DNA of 64,000 bases, taken from assembly GCA_963737525.1 (NCBI GenBank), contig CAVTTD010000034.1, positions 13,483 to 77,482 on the forward strand. Direction: 5' to 3'. The DNA is from an uncultured Actinomycetota bacterium (GTDB taxonomy: Bacteria > Actinomycetota > UBA4738 > HRBIN12). The notes under the pieces are model-generated. The model made no database searches and was not told the origin of the DNA. It saw only the letters and a list, made by a program, of their open reading frames with translations. The number at the start of each line of letters is the position of its first letter. The first letter of the stretch is position 1. Below, piece after piece: positions 2,048-64,000 of the stretch. The translations under genes were made by a program, and so were the position numbers.

Positions 2048-5000
2048 ATGGCGACCCTTCGTTTCCTGTTCAAGCGCTTCGTCGCCCAGCGGATGCTGGG
2101 TCTGGCCGTCGTGGTCACGCTGGCCTTCTCGGTCGGGGTGCTGGTCGCAGGCCCGATCTACGCGGAGGCGGCGCGGGAAGCGATCCTGTCGTCGGAGCTC
2201 ACCGGCGCTCCCCCCACGGTGCGCAACGCCCGGTTCCAGGTCTTCGGCGACGAGAGCTTCGATTGGACGACCGCCGACGGGGTGATCACGGACCGGGTGG
2301 ACGCCCTGCCCACGGACAAGCTCGTCCGGCAGGGACTCGGCACCGTGCGTCTCCTCTCGCCGGCCGGTCCTTCGGTCCCGCTCCTTGCCAGGGAAGGCGC
2401 CGGGGATCATCTCGAGATCCACGGTGAGCCTCCCGGCGCCGACGGCATCCTCATTCACGTGGCGATGGCCCGGACGCTCGGGATCCGTCGCGGCGACCGG
2501 ATCGCGATCATCGGACCGACGGGACGGGAGCTGAAGCTCACCGTCAGCGGCACCTACTCCACACCGGATCGAGGCGACGCGTTCTGGTTCGGTTCGCAGA
2601 GTCCGTTCCCGAACCGCACCGATGACACGGACTCGACCCGGCCTCAGCCGAGCATCGTCGACATCGGTACCCTCGTCCGAGCCACGCAGAGGCTGGAGCT
2701 GACCACTCAGTACTCGTGGGATGCCTACCTCGCCCTCACCGGTGTGCCGTTCGAGCGAGCCTCCGAGGTCCCGAACAACCTCCAGCGGGTTTTCACGAGC
2801 CTCCAGGACGAGGAGGGTCTCGACTCGGTCAGCCTGATCTCAGGACTCGGCACGCTCATGGACCTCGTCCGGCAGCGGGTCGCCGACCTGGCCGTGCCGA
2901 TCCTGCTCGTGGTGTTCCAGATCGGCGCCGTCACGCTCGCCGTCCTGGCCGGGGTCGGTGCCCTCGCGCTCACCCGGCAGGGATTCGAGCTCGCGGTTCT
3001 GCACAGCCGAGGATTCGGCCGAGGTGTCTTGCTGGCGGCGCAGGGCATCCAGGCGGTCTTCGCGGCGATCGTCGCGTTCCCGCTCGGCTTGCTCCTGGGG
3101 ATGGGGCTGGCAGCGCTCGCGAGCACCGCGAACGGACCGGACCTCCCAGGAGTGAGCTTCCCCATCCACTTGAACGCGACGGCCGCGTTGCTCGGGCTCG
3201 TCGCCGCCGTCGTCGGCGGCGTGATCCTCCTGGGACTCTCGGTCCCGTACGTGTCGCGGACGGTGCTCGAGGAGCGGCGGGCCGCGTCCCGGGAAGACCG
3301 TCCGCTCCTCGCGCGGGTGCCTGTCGAGCTGTTCGTCCTGCCGCTCGGCGTGTTCGCGTTCCTCCAGTTGCGGACCGGCACTCAGCCCCAAGCGGGATCC
3401 GGTGAGATCGACCCCCTCATCCTGGTCGCTCCCACCCTCCTCCTGTTCGGTGGATCGTTCCTCGCGCTCCGGCTCCTGCTCCTCGTGTTCCGAGGGCTCG
3501 ACTCCCGGATCGGACGATCACGGCGCCTGCCGAGGTACCTCGCGGGGAGACGGATCGGACGATCGCCGGGGACGGGGTTCGCCGCCGCCCTCCTCCTCCT
3601 GCTCTCGATGGGACTGCTCGTCGTGTCCACCTCGTACCGAGCCATCGTGCTGCGGAACCACCAGGACGCGGCGCACGCACAGGTGGGAGCGGACTGGCGC
3701 GTGAACGTCACGCCGCCCGAGAACGTCCTGTCGGTGATCCGACACATGCCCGAGGCGACGACACCGGTCGTTCGCACCGAGCCGCGCCTCGAGAGCGGGA
3801 CCTTCCAGCTGCCGCCCATCGCTCTCGGCATCGACCCCGCGACCTATCCTGCCGCCGGCTGGTGGCGAGAGGACTTCTCCGACGTCCCGCTGTCCGAGAT
3901 CCTCCCGCGGCTGGAGGCTCCCGCCTTCGGCATGGACCTGCCCGCCGCGACCAGTCAGCTGACGTTCGAGATGGACTCGGGCCGGGACGTGCGGCACCTG
4001 CAGGTGACGGCGACCGCCGTGGACGAGGGCGGGGTCGTCCACACCGCCCCCCTCCGGCCGGTCGAGGCGGGCCCCGCCCATTACGAGATGCCGATCGACG
4101 GTTCCGTCCGGTTGCTGTCGATCACGATCCACCGGACCTCGCTGGACTCACCCGATGAGGGAACCTTCGAGATCTCCTCGGTCGCCGCCGACGGGGCGCC
4201 GCTGTCGTTGTCGGACTGGGAGGCGCTCACCTGGCGCGGCAGCACCGGATCGGTCGAACCCGACGGATCCGGGGTCCGCTACGAGATGATCTCGGGAGCG
4301 TCCGACGTGATCGGCGGGATCGTGCCGCCATCGGACCCCCTCCCCGCGCTCGTCTCGCCCGGGATCGCCGCAGCCGGGGGACCTGTCTTCCCCGTGGCCC
4401 TGGGCGGGCAGGAAACGGAGCTCGATCCGGTCGCGGGCGCGCTCCAGTTCCCGTCGTTGATCCCAAACGCACCGTTCATCGTGGTGTCGGCCTCCGCACT
4501 CCTCGAGCGGGCCGCGGCCGTGCCCGAGCCGGGCCTCGTCCTGAACGAGGTCTGGGCCGAGGGCGAACGGAACCCGGTCCCGCTGCTCCGCGGCGACGGA
4601 TTCATCCAGGGGGACGTGGCGAGAACCGCCCCGATCGAGGGGTTCCTGGCGCAGCTGCCACAGAGCCTCGCCCTGGGGATGAACTTCGTCTCGGCGGCCG
4701 GTGGAGCCGGCCTCGTGGTGGTCGGGGTGGCGGCGGCGCTGTACTTCGCACAGCGCCGCCGCGACTACGAGTTCGCGGCACTCCGGGCGATGGGCTCCGC
4801 GTCCGGACAGATCGTCCGGACGCTCGCCCTCGAACAGGTGCTGCTCCTCGGATTCGCGGTCGTGGCGGGCCTCGGCCTGGGCTATCTCCTGCTTCGCTTG
4901 ATGATGCCGTACGTCGGACCGAGCCTCTCGGTGGCGTATCCGCCTCCGGTGTTCTTGATGGATTGGGTCTCGCTGGGGATCGCGCTCGCCGCCATCGTCG

Positions 5001-5086
5001 GCGCGAGCGCGCTCGCGCTCGCGCTGTCCGCACGCGCGCTCCTCCGCGCCTCCGTCACCGGTGTGCTGCGAGGGGAGGCGGAGTGA
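2048..5086 (+). CDS. FtsX/MacB-like ABC transporter permease (two FtsX-type TM blocks)
   Basis: Multiple TM segments with ELAVLHSRG and EFAALRAMG motifs, large extracytoplasmic loops; overlaps the downstream ATPase start. Confidence 0.85.
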   Translation: MATLRFLFKRFVAQRMLGLAVVVTLAFSVGVLVAGPIYAEAAREAILSSELTGAPPTVRNARFQVFGDESFDWTTADGVITDRVDALPTDKLVRQGLGTVRLLSPAGPSVPLLAREGAGDHLEIHGEPPGADGILIHVAMARTLGIRRGDRIAIIGPTGRELKLTVSGTYSTPDRGDAFWFGSQSPFPNRTDDTDSTRPQPSIVDIGTLVRATQRLELTTQYSWDAYLALTGVPFERASEVPNNLQRVFTSLQDEEGLDSVSLISGLGTLMDLVRQRVADLAVPILLVVFQIGAVTLAVLAGVGALALTRQGFELAVLHSRGFGRGVLLAAQGIQAVFAAIVAFPLGLLLGMGLAALASTANGPDLPGVSFPIHLNATAALLGLVAAVVGGVILLGLSVPYVSRTVLEERRAASREDRPLLARVPVELFVLPLGVFAFLQLRTGTQPQAGSGEIDPLILVAPTLLLFGGSFLALRLLLLVFRGLDSRIGRSRRLPRYLAGRRIGRSPGTGFAAALLLLLSMGLLVVSTSYRAIVLRNHQDAAHAQVGADWRVNVTPPENVLSVIRHMPEATTPVVRTEPRLESGTFQLPPIALGIDPATYPAAGWWREDFSDVPLSEILPRLEAPAFGMDLPAATSQLTFEMDSGRDVRHLQVTATAVDEGGVVHTAPLRPVEAGPAHYEMPIDGSVRLLSITIHRTSLDSPDEGTFEISSVAADGAPLSLSDWEALTWRGSTGSVEPDGSGVRYEMISGASDVIGGIVPPSDPLPALVSPGIAAAGGPVFPVALGGQETELDPVAGALQFPSLIPNAPFIVVSASALLERAAAVPEPGLVLNEVWAEGERNPVPLLRGDGFIQGDVARTAPIEGFLAQLPQSLALGMNFVSAAGGAGLVVVGVAAALYFAQRRRDYEFAALRAMGSASGQIVRTLALEQVLLLGFAVVAGLGLGYLLLRLMMPYVGPSLSVAYPPPVFLMDWVSLGIALAAIVGASALALALSARALLRASVTGVLRGEAE

Positions 5087-5952
5087 TCGAGAACGTCGTC
5101 AGCCCGGATCGCTACCGGCCCGAAGGATCCGACGCGCTCGTGCGCCTCCGACACACCTACAAGGTCTATCGGGTGGGCGACGTCGGCGTGGTGGCCCTCG
5201 GCGGCGTCGACCTCGACGTCCAGCCCGCGGAGTTCCTGGCCGTCGTCGGCCCCAGCGGTGCGGGCAAGTCCACGATCCTGAACCTCGTGGGTGGGCTCGA
5301 TCGAGCGTCGGCCGGCATCGTGGAGGTGGAAGGACGCGACCTGGGGCTGCTGGGCGACGAGGAGCTCACGGAGTATCGGGCGGAACGGGTCGGCTTCGTG
5401 TGGCAGGGAACGGCGCGCAACCTGGTTCCGTACCTGTCGGTGCGCGACAACATCCGCCTCCCCGCGACCGTGCGCCGGACCCAGGTGGCGAGGAAACACG
5501 ACGTCGACGGTCTCCTCGAGCTCGTCGGCCTCACCGATCGCGCGAAGCACACGCCCGGGATGCTCTCCGGTGGCGAGCAGCAGCGGGTGGCGATCGCCGC
5601 GGCGCTCTCCAACACACCCGCGATCCTGCTGGCCGACGAACCGACGGCGGAGCTCGACTCGGAGTCGGCCGCTCGGGTCCTCGAGGCCTTCCGCACGGTC
5701 AACCGCGAGTTCCACGTGACCATCATCATGGTGACACACGACCTGGTGGCGGCGCGGCGCGCCGATCGCCGTATCCGGGTCCGCGACGGCCGCGTCCTGC
5801 ACGAGGGCGTGCCGGTCGACCCGATCGCCGACGACGGCCGTGTCCGGCTCCCCGACGACGCGGTGGCCGCGCTCGGAGGCGCGGACCTCGAGGCCGAAGT
5901 CACCGCGGACGAGGTGCGGCTGCGAAGACGGAGCGAGACCGGCCATGCCTGA
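5083..5952 (+). CDS. ABC transporter ATP-binding protein (LolD/MacB-like) with short C-terminal extension
   Basis: GPSGAGKS, LSGGEQQRV, LLADEPT, VTHD. Confidence 0.92.
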   Translation: MIENVVSPDRYRPEGSDALVRLRHTYKVYRVGDVGVVALGGVDLDVQPAEFLAVVGPSGAGKSTILNLVGGLDRASAGIVEVEGRDLGLLGDEELTEYRAERVGFVWQGTARNLVPYLSVRDNIRLPATVRRTQVARKHDVDGLLELVGLTDRAKHTPGMLSGGEQQRVAIAAALSNTPAILLADEPTAELDSESAARVLEAFRTVNREFHVTIIMVTHDLVAARRADRRIRVRDGRVLHEGVPVDPIADDGRVRLPDDAVAALGGADLEAEVTADEVRLRRRSETGHA

Positions 5953-55253: not shown

Positions 55254-56936
55254 CTACCCTCCGGACGGCGCCTTCGCGATCTCCTTCAGGAACTGCTCGT
55301 TGGACTTCGTCGCACGGATCTTGTCGACGAGCAGCTCGAGCGCCGCGCCCACATCGAGCGCGTGGAGCACCCGTCGCAGCTTGATCACGAGGGCGAGCTC
55401 CTCGGGCGGCAGGAGCAGCTCCTCCTTCCGGGTGCTCGAGGCGTCCACGTTGATCGCCGGGAACAGGCGCTTCTCTGAGAGTGAACGATCGAGACGGAGC
55501 TCCATGTTCCCGGTGCCCTTGAACTCCTCGAAGATCGCGTCGTCCATCCGGGAGCCGGTTTCGACGAGCGCGCTGGCGATGATCGTGAGCGACCCGCCTT
55601 CCTCGATGTTCCTCGCCGCGCCGAAGAACCGCCGCGGGGGGTAGAGGGCGCCCGAGTCGATCCCGCCGGACAGGATCTTGCCCGAGGAAGGCGCAGCCAG
55701 GTTGTAGGCCCGCGACAACCGGGTGATCGAGTCGAGGATGATCGCGACGTCCCTGCCGGATTCGGCGAGACGCCGGGCCCGCTCCAAGACGAGCTCCGTG
55801 ACCTGGATGTGCTGGTCGGTGGGCTTATCGAACGTCGAATAGACGACCTCGGCGGCCTCGACGGTTCGTTGCCAGTCCGTGACCTCCTCCGGCCGCTCAT
55901 CGACGAGGAGCACGATCACGTGCGTGTCGGGACTCGAGCTGATGATCCCGTTCGCGATCTGCTTGAGGACCGTGGTCTTCCCGGCCTTGGGCGGGGACAC
56001 GACCATCCCTCGCTGGCCTTTCCCGATCGGGGCGATCATGTCGATGATCCGCTCGGTCACGGCCGCCGGGCCGGATTCGAGCCGGAACCGATCGTCGGGG
56101 AACAGCGGTGTGAGCTTGTCGAAGTTCTTGCGCTCCGTGACGTCGTCGACGTTGATGTCGTTGACCTTCTCCACCTCGAGGAGTGCCCAGTACTTCTCGT
56201 TGTCCTTGGGTTGGCGCACCTTGCCCGTCACGACATCGCCCTTCCGGAGCTGGTGCTTGCGCACCTGGGACATCGAGACGTAGATGTCGTCGGGACCCGG
56301 CAGGTAGCCGGAGGTGCGCATGAAGCCGTATCCGTCCGGGAGCAGGTCGAGGATGCCGGACGCGGAGGGAGCGGTCTTCAGCGCCTCGATGCGCTCCTGC
56401 TCCTCGCGTTCCCGGCGCTCTTCTCGCTGCTGCCGCCGCTCCTCGCGGGTAGGCCGCCGACGCCGGTTGCGTGGGTCGTTCCGGTCGCCGTCGCCGCCGC
56501 GGTCACCCCCCTGGGGACGTGCGTCCCCGGGGCCCTGACGGTCGTCCGGGCGGCGATCCTCACCGCCCGGGCGACGGTCCTCCTCGGGCCGGCGGTCGCG
56601 GGTCGGCGCGTCGGAGGGCGACCGTTGGTCGGTGTCGCTCGTGGCGCTCTCGGGTCCGGACCCGGCCGCGGCGACGTCGCCCGTTGCGTCGTCGCTCGCG
56701 ACGGCGCCATCGGCCTCCGTCGACACCGCGGCGATCGCCACGGAGCTCTCACGAGATGAGGACGTCGTCGCTTCGCCGTTCCCCGGTCGTTCGCCGTTGG
56801 ACGACGCCTCGACGATCGCGTCGATGAGTCCTGCCTTGCGCAGACGCTGGGATCCTTCGATCCCCATCGTCTGCGCGATCTGCTGCAGCTCCGGGAGGAG
56901 CTTCCCCTCCAACGTGCTGCGATCGATCGTTTCCAT
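55254..56936 (-). CDS. rho: transcription termination factor Rho with N-terminal insertion
   Basis: [28 protein letters not shown]; R/D/G-rich insertion. Confidence 0.98.
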
Positions 56937-56971
56937 CAGTGCCCTGCCTCTCTTTCTGCTGCTTTCGGCTG

Positions 56972-57646
56972 CTAGGGCGTGTCGTTGTGCATGGAGGGCT
57001 GTTCGCCCTGGAGCTTCCGCCAGTCGGCGAGGAATCGCTCCAATCCTGAGTCGGTCAGTGGGTGCTTCACGAGCTTCGTGAAGACGTCGTACGGCATCGT
57101 AGCGATGTCCGCGCCCGCGAGCGCGGCGTCCACGACGTGCATCGGATGACGCAATGACGCGGCCAGCACGTTCGAGGCGTAGCCCTGCACGGCGTAGATC
57201 TCGCAGATGTCGTGGAGGAGCTTCATCCCGTCGGCTCCGATGTCGTCCAGCCGGCCGAGGAACGGTGAGACGCAGTACGCCCCGATCTCGGCGGCGAGGA
57301 TCGCCTGCGTCGCGGAGAAGACCAGGGTCACGTTGGTCCGGATCCCTTCGCTCGTCAGTCGCTTGCCGGTCTCCAGGCCGGCGGGGGTCATCGGCACCTT
57401 GACCACCGCGTTCGGCGCCATCCCCGCGAGGCGAAGCCCTTCCTCGTACATCGGGCCGGCCTCGAGCTCCGTGGTCTCCAGGGAGATGTCGCCGTCGACC
57501 TCCGCGAGGATCTCCTTCCACACGGCCTCGGGGTCGTCGTTCTCCTTCGCGACCAGCGAAGGGTTGGTGGTGACGCCGGAGAGCACGCCCCAGCGATTGA
57601 TCTCGCGGATCTCCTCGATGTCTGCGGTGTCCAGGAACAGTCTCAC
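56972..57646 (-). CDS. tal: transaldolase (TalC/FSA family)
   Basis: FLDTA, GVTTNPSL, VKVP, SPFLGRLDD, HPLTDSGL. Confidence 0.93.
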   Translation of the reverse strand: MRLFLDTADIEEIREINRWGVLSGVTTNPSLVAKENDDPEAVWKEILAEVDGDISLETTELEAGPMYEEGLRLAGMAPNAVVKVPMTPAGLETGKRLTSEGIRTNVTLVFSATQAILAAEIGAYCVSPFLGRLDDIGADGMKLLHDICEIYAVQGYASNVLAASLRHPMHVVDAALAGADIATMPYDVFTKLVKHPLTDSGLERFLADWRKLQGEQPSMHNDTP

Positions 57647-58587
57647 GCCGTCCTCCCCTGTTGTCCGTGTTGCTCTGCTTGCTGCGCCGCCCGCGCGGTG
57701 GCGCGTTCCATCACCAGGTCCAGGACGGCGGAGATCGCCTGGTCGAAGCTGTGGTTCGGAACGATCGGCACTCCGTGGGACAGTGCCTGGCTCTTGATGT
57801 AGCGCTGGAGCTTCCTGATGTTCTCGAAGTTCTGGGCGTAGCGCTCTGCCGGACGGACGCCCGTCTCGCGCCTCGCGAAGTGGTTCAGGTGCCGGCCTTC
57901 GTCATCGACCTCGAGCACCAAGGGTACGGCAACGATGCGATCTCCGAACGGGTCCACGTCGAAGAACCCCGGGACGACGTGGACACCTTCGATGACGATG
58001 CTGGTGCCCTCGGTCGCCGATCGCTTGATCATCGCCTCGATACCCACCGACACGGCCAGCGTCTGCTCCCGGAATCCGGCGACGAGCGCGTCGGAGCGGC
58101 GCGTGGGCTCGCGGACGGCTCGATCGGTCTGGAAGGACGACACGTGCAGCGCCGGCATCAGTTCGGCCGACAGCATCGCGCGCATGACCTCGCGGATGGC
58201 GGCGTCGGTCGCGACCACCCGCACGATCCCCAACCGGTGTGCGAGGTGCGTGGCGATCGTCGACTTCCCGACCCCCACGGCGCCCCCGATCAGGATCACC
58301 AGCGGCACATCGAGCCGCTGCACCTCCTGCCAGCGCGTGAAGTTGGTCGCGTAGCGATCCCCCGCCAGCTCCCGGATGACGTCGAGCGCGATCTGCGACA
58401 GCTCGAGGCTGCTGATCGAGGAACGGCCTTCGTCCAGAAGTCGGACCTCGATCGTCTCCGCCACCTCGTATGCGCGATAGGCGGAGAGCCCCGTGACCAT
58501 GACTTCCGAAGCCATCAGCCCCTTGGAGTAGGGCAGGCCGGGATCCTGGTCGGAGATCGTGATGTGTGGGTTCTTGTCTCTGGTCAT
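57643..58587 (-). CDS. pgk2: 2-phosphoglycerate kinase (ATP-cone + P-loop)
   Basis: LPYSKGLMA ATP-cone start, ILIGGAVGVGKST, TD..IREVMR, LHVSSF, IEGVHVVPG, NFENIRKLQ. Confidence 0.9.
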   Translation of the reverse strand: MTRDKNPHITISDQDPGLPYSKGLMASEVMVTGLSAYRAYEVAETIEVRLLDEGRSSISSLELSQIALDVIRELAGDRYATNFTRWQEVQRLDVPLVILIGGAVGVGKSTIATHLAHRLGIVRVVATDAAIREVMRAMLSAELMPALHVSSFQTDRAVREPTRRSDALVAGFREQTLAVSVGIEAMIKRSATEGTSIVIEGVHVVPGFFDVDPFGDRIVAVPLVLEVDDEGRHLNHFARRETGVRPAERYAQNFENIRKLQRYIKSQALSHGVPIVPNHSFDQAISAVLDLVMERATARAAQQAEQHGQQGRTA

Positions 58588-59918
58588 GAGCGTTCTTCAG
58601 CCCGGCCGAGCGCGGTGTCGATCGCGCCGCCGAGCGCGGTGTCGAGGTCTACGGATCCCTCCACGGCCTCTGCGCGGTTGTCCACGAACACGACCTCCGC
58701 CCCTCGGTCGAGGGCTCTGGCGATCGCCGTATCGACGGCCGCCGCCTTCAGCTCCGTGAGGAGGACGTCGTATCCCTGGACGGCATCGAGGTCTTCGACC
58801 AGGCCGGCGCGATCCGCCAGCCGAGCGCTCCATCCCACGACCCTGCACCCATGGTCGGCCTCGAGGCGTCGGATCAGCCCCTCGACGACCGCAGGAGGAG
58901 CAGTCGTGGTGAAGAACACTTCCTTGCCCCGGATATCTTCCAGCGGTACCGGAACGAAGTCCGTGACGATGAACGCTGCATCGTCCAGGTAACGCCGAAC
59001 AGGGGAACGGAGCTCGGAAAGGTTTTCGAACCCGGATGGGTCGCTAGCCATGGTAGCAACCACCAGGTCCGACCGCAAGAGTCGGTAGGGGCCGAGGTAT
59101 CCACCCAGGTACTCGGGAGGCGCCGTGGCGGGCACCACGAGGATGCCTGCGTCCCAGGGGATCGGTGGGATCGCCGCGCCGCTCCCCTCCACGATCACGA
59201 GCCCGGGGCTGAGGGAGGCCGCCAGCTCGGCGGCCTCCCGGACGTTGGAGGTGTAGGGCGCGCCGGCGAGCCCGCCGCCGGCGCGCCGGGCGCCCACGGT
59301 GGTGACGCCGGTGGTGACGGCGTCCTCCAGGTAGTCCGAAGCGGCGTGGGAGCCCTCGGCGGCCAGCCGCACGAGGTGGTCGAGGTCGACCGAGCCCGCC
59401 ATCGCCAGGGTGGGCTCGGGCGGCCCGCCGCGGCCCATCGCGACGATGACCGGCTGCAGACCGCGGCGGGCCGCCAGTCGGGCCACCGCACCGGCGATCG
59501 CGGTCTTCCCCGTCCGCTTCCCGGTGCCGATGACCGCGAGCGTGGGCATCGCCAGCGGCGGGCCGAGCGCCGGTGGCTCGAATCGGAAGTCGGGGCCCAC
59601 GTACGGGATGCCCGCCACCAGAGCGACGGCCGCCATCTCCATCCGCTCCCGGTACCCCAGGACGGGCTCGTCGGAGAGGTCGAGGACGACCTCCGGAGAG
59701 CGTTCGGCGATGGCGGCGCGCAGCGCGTGCATCGGGTCCCCGGCGACAACGAGGAGGGGCACGCCGAGGTCGGGCGGCTCGCCGCCGGGAGCGAGCTTCT
59801 CGGTCCCGCCGACGAGGAGCGCGGCCACGATCTCGTGGCCGCGCTCCCGCGCCACTTCCAAAGCGGCGCGTGTGACCGGCGGGTAGTGCTCGCCGTCCAC
59901 GAGGACGAGCGTTCGCAT
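58584..59918 (-). CDS. cpgS: cyclic 2,3-diphosphoglycerate synthetase
   Basis: LVDGEHYPPV, GGTEK, DLSDEPVL, GTGKRTGKTA, MGRGGP, HAASDYLEDA, RRAGGGLAG, EGSGAAIPP, TELKAAAVD; overlaps pgk2. Confidence 0.92.
   Translation of the reverse strand: MRTLVLVDGEHYPPVTRAALEVARERGHEIVAALLVGGTEKLAPGGEPPDLGVPLLVVAGDPMHALRAAIAERSPEVVLDLSDEPVLGYRERMEMAAVALVAGIPYVGPDFRFEPPALGPPLAMPTLAVIGTGKRTGKTAIAGAVARLAARRGLQPVIVAMGRGGPPEPTLAMAGSVDLDHLVRLAAEGSHAASDYLEDAVTTGVTTVGARRAGGGLAGAPYTSNVREAAELAASLSPGLVIVEGSGAAIPPIPWDAGILVVPATAPPEYLGGYLGPYRLLRSDLVVATMASDPSGFENLSELRSPVRRYLDDAAFIVTDFVPVPLEDIRGKEVFFTTTAPPAVVEGLIRRLEADHGCRVVGWSARLADRAGLVEDLDAVQGYDVLLTELKAAAVDTAIARALDRGAEVVFVDNRAEAVEGSVDLDTALGGAIDTALGRAEERS
59050..59078 (-). 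promoter_or_regulatory. putative internal sigma70 promoter inside cpgS
   Basis: TTGCGG-N17-TACCAT at the point where cpgS codons switch to A/T-ending. Confidence 0.45.
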
Positions 59919-59961
59919 GTGGTCTCCTTGCCGGGCCGGATGGAGTTGGGGTTCGCCGCGG

Positions 59962-60765
59962 TCAGTCGGCGGGAGGTTGGCCGGACACCTGCGCCGACTC
60001 CTGCACCAGGCTTTCACCTTCGCGCTGCATCTGGGTTCCGGTCGCGATCGCGACCTGCGCCATCTGCTGTCGCTCGCCGAACGGGAACTTCCGGAAGATC
60101 GTGACCTCCCCCGCCTCGATCTCCAGCACGTTGTAGCAGGGCTTCGTGTGCCCCCGCACGCGAAGGGACGAACACGTGCCCGCGCTCGCGAGGTACATGT
60201 CCTCGAGCCGCCACACGTAGGGGACATGCTTGTGGCCGGCGAGGACCACGTGCACGCCGGCGTGCACGAGGACCTCGAGGAGGTCTCCGGCGTCCATCAC
60301 CGTGCTTCGCTCGCGTCCGGTCCCCGGGATCGGGATCAGATGATGGTGCAGGACGAACACCTTGAGGTCCGCGGGATCGGCGAACTGCTCCGTGATCCAC
60401 GCGTAATGGCTCCGTCCCACCATCCCCTCGTTCAGGTCGGGTTCGCTGGAATCGACGCCGACGATCCGGATTCCCTCGACGTCCACGGACCAATTCCGAG
60501 CGCCGATCAGCTCTTCGAAGTGCAGGTACCCGACGTTCCGCGAGTCGTGGTTGCCGGGGATCGTGTGCAACGGCGCCTCGATCCGCTCGGCGTAGGAGAG
60601 CCAGGCTTGGTACTCCTGCCGGTACCCGTCCGTCGTCAGGTCCCCACTGCAGATCACCGCATCGGGTTGCAATCCATTGATCTCCTCGATCACCCGATGG
60701 AGCAGGTTCGGCACGAAGTGGGGGGAACCGACGTGCGGATCTGAGATGTGGGCGATCGTGACCAC
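59962..60765 (-). CDS. calcineurin-like metallophosphoesterase (CpdA/Icc-like)
   Basis: SDPH, SGDLT, PGNHD, LHHH, GHKH; TACACT 6 nt before GTG. Confidence 0.93.
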   Translation of the reverse strand: MVTIAHISDPHVGSPHFVPNLLHRVIEEINGLQPDAVICSGDLTTDGYRQEYQAWLSYAERIEAPLHTIPGNHDSRNVGYLHFEELIGARNWSVDVEGIRIVGVDSSEPDLNEGMVGRSHYAWITEQFADPADLKVFVLHHHLIPIPGTGRERSTVMDAGDLLEVLVHAGVHVVLAGHKHVPYVWRLEDMYLASAGTCSSLRVRGHTKPCYNVLEIEAGEVTIFRKFPFGERQQMAQVAIATGTQMQREGESLVQESAQVSGQPPAD

Positions 60766-60844
60766 GTCGGCAGTGTAGGGGGCGGCGCCATCCGTCGACG
60801 CGCGTCCACCGAAGCGACGAGGCGGCGTGGGACGATATCGCCCC

Positions 60845-62010
60845 GTGACCGTCCTGGACGTGGTCCTCATCGGGTTGCTCCTGTTGTCGGCGTGGGGCGG
60901 CTATCGACGCGGAGCCATGCTCCAGGTGGCCGGGCTCCTTGGGCTCGGGGTCGGGTTCGTCGTGGGCGCGTGGCTCGCGCCACACACGGCCGACCTCGTC
61001 CGGTCCGACCCGGCGAAGGCGGGAGTGGCGCTCGGCACGGTCCTGCTCCTGGGCGCGATCGGCGATGCGCTGGGGTCCGTGGTCGGGGCTCAAGCTCAGG
61101 AAGCGCACCCTCGGAACGCGCTTCAAGGTGGCGGACGCGGTGGGTGGGTCCGCGCTCTCGGCGGGCGCTCTGGTGCTCGCGATCTGGTTCCTCGGCCTCA
61201 ACCTCGCAGCCGGGCCCTTCCCCTCCATCGCCCGCTCCCTCCAGCATTCCGCCGTCGTCCGCGTCGTGGATGCGGCGCTTCCCCCGCCGCCGTCACTCGC
61301 CGCGCAGATCGGGAACGTGCTGGACCTGATCGGGTTCCCGGACGTCTTCTCGGGGCTGCCGCCGCTACCGGCGGAGCCCGTCCCGCAGCCCGCGCGAGGA
61401 CTCGCCGCCCGAGCAGCCCGGGCGGCGCGCCCCTCGGTGGTGCTGATCGCCGGACCCGCGTGCGATGGGATCCTCCAGGGCACCGGGGTCGTGGTGGAGG
61501 ACGATCTCGTCCTCACGAACGCCCACGTCGATCGCCGGCGGCAGCCCGAGGGTCGAATGGGGAGGGAAGACCTTCACCGCGGTGCCGGTGCTCTTCGACC
61601 GAGATATGGACGCGGCGCTCCTTCGGGTCGACGGTCTGGACGCCCCGCCGCTCACGCTCCTGTCGCGAGAAGTGGACCGAGGGGCGGGTGGGGCCGTGCT
61701 CGGGTACCCGCACGGGCGATACACGGAGCTCCGTGCCGCGGCCCGTCGGGCGCTGGACGCCGTCGGTCGGGACATCTACTCCGAGGACCAGGTGCGTCGC
61801 CGGATCTACGAGCTGCAGGTGACGGTGAAGCCGGGCAACAGCGGCGGACCGTTCGTGCTGCCCGGCGGGAAGCTCGCGGGCCTGATCTTCGGAGCGTCCA
61901 TCACGAACGGGGACCTGGGCTATGCGCTCACGTCACCCGAGCTGATCCCGTTGGTCGATCGGGCGGCGGCCCGTACCGACGCAGTCGGGACGGGCCGCTG
62001 CGTCCGCTGA
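60845..62010 (+). CDS. MarP-like membrane serine protease (CvpA-like TM + trypsin domain; frameshifted)
   Basis: LDVVLIG...GGYRRG TM domain; TNAHV, DAALL, GNSGGP triad. Confidence 0.88.
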
Positions 62011-62014
62011 GGGT

Positions 62015-62912
62015 TCAGTCTTCGATCGCGACCTCGACGCCCTTCGCATTGACGCCCGGCCGGATCGCGCGCCAGCCGTCCGGGAGGTCACCGATCGTGC
62101 TTCCCTCGCGTTCGAAGGCCAGGAGCGAAGGACCCGCTCCGGAGACACAAGACGGGACCTGCCGGCGCTGTCGCAACTCGTGAAGCAGACCTTTGGCCTC
62201 AGGGATCAGTTCGAGGCGTGCATCTTCGTGGAGCCGATCGAAGAGCGCCATGTGCAGAAGCTCGGGGTCTCGAGTGAAGGCGATCGCCGCCAGTGAGGCG
62301 TGGCTCACGTTGAACACCGCATCGCGACGAGAGACCTCCTCCGTCAGAGCCCTTCGGGCTTCTGCGGTTGACAACCTGAGTCGATCGGGAACGAGGACGA
62401 CAGGATCGAGATCGGGGTGCGGATCGAGTCGATGCACGAATCCGGTCCGCGACGATCGTGAATCCCCCGTAGACCGCCGCGGCTGCGTTGTCGGGATGGC
62501 CCTCGATCGAGGCCGCGTACCCGAAGATGGGATACGGGTCGTCCGGCGTCGCGCTGGTCGCGGACTCCCCGAGCAGCGCGTTGGCAAGGGCGACACCCGC
62601 GACAGCCGCGGCCGACGAGGAGCCCAGCCCGCGTTCAAGCGGTATCCGATTGACGCCGTGGAGCGAGAACGGCGGGAGCTTCGCGTGCGGATGGGATCCG
62701 CGCTGTTGCTCGAGGGTATGCGCGATCGCGCGGCTCACCATGTCGGAACCGTCGGTCGGGAGCTCGTCGGCCCCCTCCCCTTCCCACGTGACGCCGGGTT
62801 CGACCTCGGTGTCGACGGTCACCTCGTTGCACAGATCGAGCGCGAGCCCGAAACAATCGAACCCGGGACCGAGGTTCGCCGACGTGGCCGGCACCCGGAC
62901 GGTGATGCGCAC
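62015..62912 (-). CDS. thrB: homoserine kinase (frameshifted)
   Basis: [36 protein letters not shown]. Confidence 0.94.
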
Positions 62913-63993
62913 CTACAGCCCCAGCTCGGCGGCGACCACGGCAGGGTCGGCCGGCACGGTCTCGGGCCGCGCCGCCCCGGAGATCGCCCACTCCGGATCC
63001 TTCAGCCCGTGTCCGGTCAGGACGCACACCACGGTCGCGTCGGCCGCGAGCTCGCCCTCGGCGTGCAGGTGCAGCAGCCCGGCGACGCTCGCGGCCGACG
63101 CCGGCTCCGCGAACAGCCCCTCCCGAGCCACGCGCCGGTACGCCGCCAGGATCTCCCGGTCGGTCACGGCCAGGATCGCACCCTCGGACTCCTTCGCCGC
63201 CGCGACCGCCTTCTCCCACGACGCCGGGTTCCCGATCCGGATCGCGGTCGCGATCGTCTGCGGGTCCTTGACCGGCTCCCCGAGCACGATCGGTGCCGCA
63301 CCCTGAGCCTGGAAGCCGAAGAGTCGCGGTGGTTCGTGGATCAGTCCGGCCTCCAGGTACTCGGTGTAGCCGAGCCAGTGGCTCGAGATGTTGCCGGCGT
63401 TGCCCGACCGGCACGAGGTGGAGATCGGGCGCGCGGTCGAGCGTGTCGCAGATCTCGAACGCCGCGGTCTTCTGTCCCTCGAGCCGGTAGGGGTTCACGC
63501 TGTTCACCAGCGTCACGGGGTAGCGGTCCGCGAGACCCTTCGCCAGTTCCAGCGATGCGTCGAAGTTGCCGTCGACCTCGAGCACCCGGGCGCCGTGCAC
63601 GAGCGTCTGCGCCATCTTGCCAAGCGCGATCTTTCCTTTCGGAACGAGCACCGCACACGTGAGGCCGGCTTTCGCCGCGTACGCCGCCGCGCTCGCGCTC
63701 GTGTTGCCCGTGGACGCGCATACGACGGCCTTCGCGCCCTCCTCGAGCGCCTTCGAGATCGCGAGCGTCATCCCACGGTCCTTGAAGGACCCGGTGGGGT
63801 TCGCGCCGTCGTACTTGAGCCAGCACGTCGCAGCCGGTCTCGGCCGACAGGACCTCCGATCGGACCAGAGGGGTCCCGCCTTCACAGAGGGTGACCACGG
63901 GTGTGTCGGCCGAGACCGGCAACCGCGCCCGGTACTCCTCGATGATCCCGCGCCACTGGGGCGCCCCGGACCCGGTGCCTCCGCGGAGGTCAT
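62913..63993 (-). CDS. thrC: threonine synthase (frameshifted)
   Basis: [43 protein letters not shown]. Confidence 0.95.
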
Positions 63994-64000
63994 TCCTCGC

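Follow-up and report, generated by a model that had tools for sequence, protein, structure and literature searches.

A metallophosphoesterase encoded with 2-phosphoglycerate kinase and cyclic 2,3-diphosphoglycerate synthetase is a candidate hydrolase of the 2,3-diphosphoglycerate pathway

Introduction

Which enzyme breaks down cyclic 2,3-diphosphoglycerate (cDPG) and 2,3-diphosphoglycerate (2,3-DPG) in prokaryotes is the question raised by a gene cluster of an uncultured Actinomycetota bacterium. The cluster lies in a 64,000-nucleotide stretch of contig CAVTTD010000034.1 (assembly GCA_963737525.1, positions 13,483 to 77,482), here called the window, and is headed by a gene for a metallophosphoesterase (MPE; 59962..60765, minus strand). 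It is followed by cpgS, coding for a cDPG synthetase homologue (58584..59918, minus strand), and by the gene for a 2-phosphoglycerate kinase family protein (2PGK; 57643..58587, minus strand). The genes for cDPG synthesis have been known since the 1990s. As to breakdown, the available text of a 2005 review reports for Methanothermobacter thermautotrophicus a cDPG-hydrolysing activity and the interconversion of cDPG and 2,3-DPG and names no gene; the hydrolase is given there as a membrane-bound enzyme that K+ and Pi inhibit (PMC1224877).

A prediction made earlier from the letters of the window (the original prediction) had put the MPE forward as either the cDPG hydrolase or a 2,3-DPG phosphatase, and had stated that no gene is known to be assigned to the cDPG-hydrolysing activity. 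This agrees with the literature searched here, in which no gene was found to be assigned to cDPG hydrolysis or to prokaryotic 2,3-DPG dephosphorylation. In this study we find that the MPE has an intact two-metal site and a conserved signature, and that its gene is linked to and co-occurs with the pathway genes across phyla. From these comparisons we tentatively propose that the MPE is a 2,3-DPG-directed hydrolase of the 2PGK/cDPG synthetase pathway, with or without activity on cDPG, a reading to which we give nearly an even chance.

Results

A two-metal phosphoesterase with a signature of its own

The MPE gene encodes 267 amino acids from a GTG start, with no internal stop in the translation. 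Its match to the Pfam family Metallophos (PF00149; 68.4 bits against a gathering cut-off of 21.5, E 1.5e-18) is far beyond chance and places the protein in the calcineurin-like metallophosphoesterase superfamily. A motif script located DPH at residue 9, GD at 41, GNHD at 71, HHH at 140 and GHKH at 177, with all metal ligands present (D9/H11, D42, N72/H73, H140-142 and H178/H180). The five-motif binuclear metal site is thus complete, as the original prediction had read it, and it is invariant in an alignment of 18 orthologues from Actinomycetota, Methanobacteriaceae, Thermococci and one Promethearchaeota contig (alignment A1). The three arginine-rich motifs described there were also located, GNHDSRNVGY at 71, PGTGRER at 147 and SSLRVRG at 199. 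Altogether the alignment contains 35 invariant positions, which include all metal ligands as well as D105-S106, P109-D110, T149-G150-R151-E152-R153 and R204, while R76 and K179 are nearly invariant. The signature of the subfamily reads GNHDxRNVG / DSxxPD / HHHLxPxPxTGRER / GHKH / RxRG, and the conserved set of basic residues next to the HH motif is specific to it.

No curated NCBIfam cut-off was reached by the MPE. Its scores for the 3',5'-cyclic-AMP phosphodiesterase CpdA (NF008359; 48.7 bits against an equivalog cut-off of 225) and for SpdA (NF050112; 45.9 bits against 400) lie below membership in either family. The top NCBIfam match by E-value was the anti-phage phosphoesterase DS9 (NF053862, 1.9e-17); this assignment was rejected, since the score is 63.3 bits where 420 are required and the match covers only residues 101-194 of the MPE. 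Among solved structures the sequence matched only Rv0805, the class III cyclic-nucleotide phosphodiesterase of Mycobacterium tuberculosis (E 6.5e-14), and GpdQ, the glycerophosphodiesterase of Enterobacter aerogenes (E 3.6e-12), and therefore no orthologue has been solved. The two-metal motifs are common to all three proteins, but in pairwise alignment Rv0805 has a different loop after the HH motif, where the MPE subfamily carries the invariant TGRER, and the genomic partners 2PGK and cpgS set the MPE apart from both Rv0805 and GpdQ.

An AF2 model built from the 18-sequence alignment (pLDDT 87.0, pTM 0.86, with pLDDT below 50 for the last 17 or so residues, 251-267) gave 425 Foldseek matches in the PDB at E <= 0.001 and showed the beta-sandwich phosphoesterase fold. 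The top folds were GpdQ and Rv0805 (TM 0.64-0.73, 19-24% identity), followed by purple acid phosphatases, and the modelled fold of the MPE is GpdQ/Rv0805-like. The highest Kyte-Doolittle mean over 19 residues was 1.42, in a core strand-helix region; because no window exceeds this value the MPE is predicted to be soluble, and it may associate peripherally with the membrane. A scan of 1.84 billion cluster representatives yielded 193 MPE matches at E <= 1e-30. Among the best 150 of these 193, 103 were at least 230 amino acids long, 80 of the 103 carrying [STNA]GRE[RK], and 34 were tandem forms of at least 450 amino acids. Matches in the ESM Atlas were the proteins' own families in Actinomycetota. 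We classify the MPE as a new subfamily within a known superfamily; it is uncharacterised, and its predicted role is specific and testable.

Linkage and co-occurrence with cpgS in Actinomycetota

The stop codon of the MPE gene (59962-59964) and the ATG of cpgS (59918) are separated by a spacer of 43 nt (59919..59961, minus strand), the distance given in the original prediction. Its naming of the downstream gene is borne out as well: in a phmmer search of the PDB the 444-residue cpgS product matched the solved cDPG synthetases 9sxb_A (E 3.5e-92, residues 4-419), 8oru and 8ork (both E 9.1e-92), and its homologues fall into the precomputed Pfam family PF27272, with the source name 'cyclic 2,3-diphosphoglycerate synthetase'. 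At its start, the 2PGK gene overlaps the cpgS stop by 4 nt, and its product of 314 amino acids matches NF003259, '2-phosphoglycerate kinase', at E 1.9e-83, with a score (280.3 bits) that stays under the curated cut-off of 343. Hence, the MPE is encoded beside cpgS and 2PGK on a common strand.

This arrangement is highly conserved in the clade. Among the best 80 cpgS loci of the genome collection (64-89% identity, labelled Actinomycetota or similar), the MPE gene stands directly upstream of cpgS in 78, the other two (L062, L079) being cut by a contig end, and 2PGK follows cpgS in 79. The order MPE-cpgS was likewise found in eight low-GC Actinomycetota loci of a DNA pattern scan.

For co-occurrence, 401 evenly sampled genomes of the phylum were searched for cpgS (E <= 1e-10) and the MPE (E <= 1e-15), and the two genome lists were compared by hand. 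cpgS was found in 230 and the MPE in 229 genomes; 225 genomes had both, five only cpgS (G019, G177, G195, G281, G391), four only the MPE (G108, G372, G117, G315) and 167 neither. Fourteen genomes of the sample are flagged as unpublished, one of them with cpgS only (G391) and the others with both genes (G088, G343, G239, G318, G174, G048, G148, G120, G226, G018, G001, G082, G268); without them the counts are 212 both, 4 cpgS only, 4 MPE only and 167 neither (n = 387). In cpgS-positive genomes of the phylum that have the MPE, its E-values were all <= 1e-44, which separates orthologues clearly from paralogues. The MPE matches of G108 and G372 reached paralogue level only (E 6e-19 and 2e-16), and in G315 an open frame of 142 amino acids matches part of 2PGK (its residues 166-299). 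Presence and absence of the MPE follow those of the pathway genes across genomes, with the exceptions weighed below. The co-occurrence and clustering of the TGRER-type subfamily with cpgS, for which phylogenetic profiling had been suggested in the original prediction, were found in Actinomycetota, Thermococci and Promethearchaeota, and the lack of association that it had named as counter-evidence was not observed.

MPE paralogues occur in heterogeneous neighbourhoods. In two Actinomycetota families and one Methanobacteriaceae genome their neighbours were a SAM hydroxide adenosyltransferase (SAM_HAT) gene in two cases and, in one case each, a PhoU-domain gene and an ABC transporter gene. The two paralogues adjoining SAM_HAT are second MPE copies of two Actinomycetota genomes (L230 7070..7924, L233 5353..6174).

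Tandem orthologues and a CBS-pair neighbour in archaea

All five cpgS-positive archaeal genomes tested directly contained an orthologue-grade MPE (E 1e-52 to 5e-67); archaeal absences, here and below, mean that a gene was not found in the genomes searched, whose completeness is unreported. The DNA pattern scan returned 120 loci, 104 of them with cpgS and 12 of the 104 also with the MPE, many Methanobacteriales pieces holding cpgS alone. Near cpgS and 2PGK, the MPE is found in three loci of Thermococci and one of Promethearchaeota. The gene order is cpgS-2PGK-CBS-MPE in the Thermococci locus L139 (MPE at 4065..5582), convergent in the Thermococci locus L088 (1211..2731) and cpgS-2PGK-MPE in the Promethearchaeota locus L172 (3250..4785).

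In these archaeal clusters the MPE is a tandem protein of 505-511 amino acids with two phosphoesterase domains, the N-terminal one carrying the full signature. Read from the translations, the C-terminal domain of the Thermococci proteins lacks several ligand motifs, having GHND and GHGG where the N-terminal domain has GNHD and GHKH. The second domain of the Promethearchaeota protein keeps most ligands and lacks TGRER. The tandem form may be a fused pseudo-dimer.

Directly upstream of the tandem MPE, the Thermococci encode a CBS-pair protein of about 135 amino acids (L139 3642..4058, L088 807..1214, also L217-L228). This gene is a constant neighbour of the tandem MPE in Thermococci-class genomes, and the pairing is kept even in G405, where cpgS and 2PGK are found on contigs other than that of the MPE. 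As a rule, CBS proteins are sensors of adenine nucleotides, and the CBS-pair protein may be a regulator. The pairing, which also marks the clusters without cpgS described below, is what would be expected if the MPE were linked to the pathway in a non-catabolic way, either hydrolysing some further phosphorylated compound connected with 2PGK, such as a side product, a nucleotide or a signalling cyclic nucleotide, or serving as a regulator of kinase or synthetase, a task in which the CBS-pair protein would share in archaea. At family level, the closest sequence matches of the MPE are cyclic-nucleotide phosphodiesterases, all scoring below their cut-offs, and they point the same way. Yet a CBS gene is missing from the Actinomycetota clusters, the invariant Arg and Lys residues are suited to a small polyanion, and neither of the two known pathway reactions, as given in the available text of PMC1224877, releases a diester by-product. 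On balance we regard a non-catabolic role as unlikely.

2PGK is the tightest partner

The class around the Thermococcus genome G405 was sampled with 101 genomes (the Thermococci-class sample). cpgS was found in 69 of them and the MPE in 82, and all 69 cpgS-positive genomes have the MPE, leaving 13 genomes with the MPE only, none with cpgS only and 19 with neither. By hand comparison, the MPE lies at most 5 kb from cpgS on a single contig in 58 of the 69. Compared with 2PGK, the same sample gave 81 genomes with both genes, one with the MPE only, none with 2PGK only and 19 with neither. Thus, the tightest partner of the MPE is 2PGK, not cpgS.

The 13 MPE-positive genomes without cpgS are instructive in this respect. 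In 11 of them the tandem MPE stands beside the CBS and 2PGK genes, and cpgS was found neither within the 1.8-4.9 kb beyond 2PGK nor elsewhere in the genome. Two arrangements are seen, in the first of which the genes are co-directional and in the second of which the CBS gene is encoded on the opposite strand, and the N-terminal domains of the MPE keep GNHDxRNVG, HHHLxPxP[TS]GRER and GHKH or AHRH. Because genomes without cpgS maintain 2PGK-CBS-MPE with the signature intact, the weight shifts from a cDPG hydrolase to a 2,3-DPG-directed hydrolase. Of the two activities named in the original prediction, candidate status is well supported by the linkage to cpgS, and the comparison favours 2,3-DPG as the putative core substrate, with opening of the cDPG ring possible.

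The same genomes bear on the other activity in its strict form, a dedicated cDPG hydrolase that cleaves only the cyclic pyrophosphate to 2,3-DPG, its orthologues in archaea without cpgS doing something else. Such an enzyme would suit the diesterase-type fold and nearest relatives (GpdQ and Rv0805), the chemistry of cDPG, in which each phosphorus is diester-like with a good leaving group, and the direct adjacency of the MPE to cpgS in Actinomycetota. Nevertheless, the 11 genomes without a cpgS match keep the MPE beside 2PGK with unchanged signature residues, the co-occurrence with 2PGK is tighter than that with cpgS (one MPE-only genome against 13), and the MPE has no membrane segment where the reported activity is membrane-bound. 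A cDPG-only enzyme is therefore quite unlikely in our assessment.

The lone genome with the MPE and no 2PGK, G606, is a close relative of the organism of L139 and also lacks cpgS. Only the last 27 codons of its CBS gene are left, and its tandem MPE (L229 5016..6622) is split into two open reading frames of 243 and 262 amino acids, which looks like decay after a recent deletion of the partners.

Points against a 2,3-DPG-directed role

A number of observations weigh against the 2,3-DPG-directed reading. Orthologue-grade MPE was not found in several cpgS-positive genomes, namely one of Bacillota (G654, best E 3e-16), one of Undinarchaeota (G655) and two of Desulfurococcales (G656, G657). Among Actinomycetota, no MPE was found in G019, G195 and G281, which have cpgS and 2PGK, nor in the 5 kb upstream of cpgS in L099, and the reverse case is provided by G117 (98% complete), in which the MPE is present and neither cpgS nor 2PGK was found. 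A second archaeal sample, 151 genomes around the Methanobacteriaceae genome G403, contained 132 genomes with both cpgS and the MPE, eight with cpgS and no orthologue-grade MPE, six with the MPE only and five with neither. As MPE orthologues are present in 138 of the 151 genomes and in 132 of the 140 cpgS-positive ones, both genes are near-ubiquitous there and their co-occurrence discriminates little. In the same sample, three cpgS-less genomes (G447, G461, G515) have 2PGK and no MPE was found in them, and one cpgS-less genome with the MPE has no 2PGK match. Moreover, the MPE of Methanobacteriaceae is unlinked to cpgS and comes in two or three paralogues, and since kin genomes are not independent, the 225 Actinomycetota genomes with both genes may count as one evolutionary event. 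The co-encoding of a complete cDPG cycle, suggested in the original prediction, stays hypothetical, and some cpgS-bearing lineages are without the MPE.

Further points concern the chemistry and the known activity. The nearest characterised relatives, GpdQ and Rv0805, act mainly as diesterases, a better match to the anhydride of cDPG than to the monoesters of 2,3-DPG. If a kinase is co-transcribed with a phosphatase that acts on its product, a futile cycle would result, unless the phosphatase is under regulation. Finally, the M. thermautotrophicus hydrolase is membrane-bound according to the available text of PMC1224877, whereas the MPE has no predicted membrane segment.

A further reading is that the MPE is a generic phosphodiesterase functionally unconnected with the neighbouring genes, the adjacency being inherited synteny. 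In favour of this, the three genes may simply be co-inherited within Actinomycetota, the genes are unlinked in Methanobacteriaceae and the contexts of MPE paralogues are heterogeneous. We consider this very improbable, with linkage that recurs in at least five arrangements in distant lineages, an MPE whose distribution follows that of 2PGK in the Thermococci-class sample, and an MPE gene that is split where the partners are deleted (G606).

Translation start and surroundings of the gene

In the alignment, the starts of the MPE orthologues coincide with the GTG at 60765 and not with an upstream ATG (60870), which would give a longer open reading frame whose additional part is unconserved. The hexamer TACACT (60777..60772, minus strand), located 6 nt upstream of that GTG, may be the -10 element of a leaderless promoter. 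Because of this spacing and because no Shine-Dalgarno-like purine run was seen upstream of the GTG on reading the sequence, a leaderless start is plausible; the earlier description of the gene as apparently leaderless stands to this extent, and a consensus promoter and terminator scan returned no promoter site.

In the window the gene string is completed by a fructose-6-phosphate aldolase/transaldolase-type gene (fsa; 56972..57646, minus strand), the start of which overlaps the 2PGK stop by 4 nt. Its product scores 273.6 bits against TIGR00875, above the cut-off of 245.95, and matches Pfam TAL_FSA at E 3.6e-54. The order is MPE-cpgS-2PGK-fsa, with the MPE at the head. In the clade of the 80 loci fsa follows 2PGK in 78, making a string of four genes, and it is not conserved in more distant clusters. 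Downstream of fsa, a long open reading frame (55254..57521, minus strand) shows in its translation a long Arg/Asp/Gly-rich N-terminal stretch and a Rho-like ATPase sequence at the end.

On the other side, a divergent intergenic region of 61 nt (60766..60826) separates the MPE start from that of a CvpA-like gene. Several neighbours beyond it appear disrupted: a MarP-like gene has its CvpA-like part in one frame and its trypsin-like part in another, the N-domain of a homoserine kinase lies in 62199..62912 with the remainder apparently in 62015..62638, and the PALP (threonine synthase) profile is split over the open reading frames 62635..63993 and 62913..63287. These apparent frame shifts (60827..63999) may be assembly indels or pseudogenes. 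The source assembly is 58.7% complete, in 44 contigs.

Discussion

The MPE would, in our proposal, be a soluble two-metal phosphohydrolase that forms the hydrolytic arm of the 2PGK/cDPG synthetase pathway. 2,3-DPG, the product of 2PGK, would be dephosphorylated to a monophosphoglycerate and Pi, which would return to central metabolism. Since the coupling persists in genomes without cpgS and the signature is unchanged there, we infer 2,3-DPG to be at least one substrate. The MPE might also open the pyrophosphate ring of cDPG, a step that would be chemically natural because the protein is a diesterase-type member, either as a second activity or as the task of one paralogue where several exist. 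From their alignment positions, R76, R151, R153, K179 and R204 are the putative binding residues for the polyanion, and by analogy with the superfamily the attack would be made by a metal-bridged hydroxide. Co-transcription with the kinase would imply that the MPE is controlled post-translationally, and in archaea the CBS partner is a candidate for exerting this control.

Removal of one phosphate from 2,3-DPG would be analogous to the reaction of bisphosphoglycerate mutase and MIPP1, the phosphatases that act on 2,3-bisphosphoglycerate in eukaryotes. Both are members of the histidine phosphatase superfamily, which differs in fold and mechanism, and any likeness to the MPE would be convergent. 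The M. thermautotrophicus hydrolase converts cDPG to 2,3-DPG in the available account (PMC1224877), the conversion for which the MPE is a candidate. In the accessible text of a survey of thermophile-associated families, 'phosphoesterases related to Icc' (COG2129) are among those families, and 2PGK is listed in Thermus and Deinococcus (PMC1274311). Both cDPG synthesis genes of Pyrococcus yayanosii and the cDPG synthase of Thermococcus eurythermalis are described, in the portions of the reports available, as responding to pressure (PMC4890121, PMC7511516).

cDPG is, from the available text of two reports, a studied extremolyte of biotechnological interest (PMC12136491, PMC10690619), and one of these states that it is exclusive to hyperthermophilic methanogens (PMC10690619). 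The occurrence of cpgS in 230 of 401 genomes of the phylum, and the spread of cpgS-2PGK-MPE in metagenome-assembled Actinomycetota as putative producers, call this exclusivity into question. A gene candidate that spans domains makes the question of breakdown testable, since 2,3-DPG is commercial and cDPG can be made enzymatically, and a co-encoded hydrolase would lower cDPG yields in production strains. The broader proposal, that the catabolic enzyme long missing from a widespread 2,3-DPG/cDPG cycle is the MPE subfamily, with a CBS-pair sensor gating the hydrolase in archaea, is a possibility that we put at somewhat under even. If it is true, the cycle of 2PGK, with or without cpgS, and the MPE would be a widespread buffer of phosphate, carbon or charge, found in more than half of the Actinomycetota sample, in Thermococci and in Asgard archaea, and would not be a speciality of hyperthermophilic methanogens.

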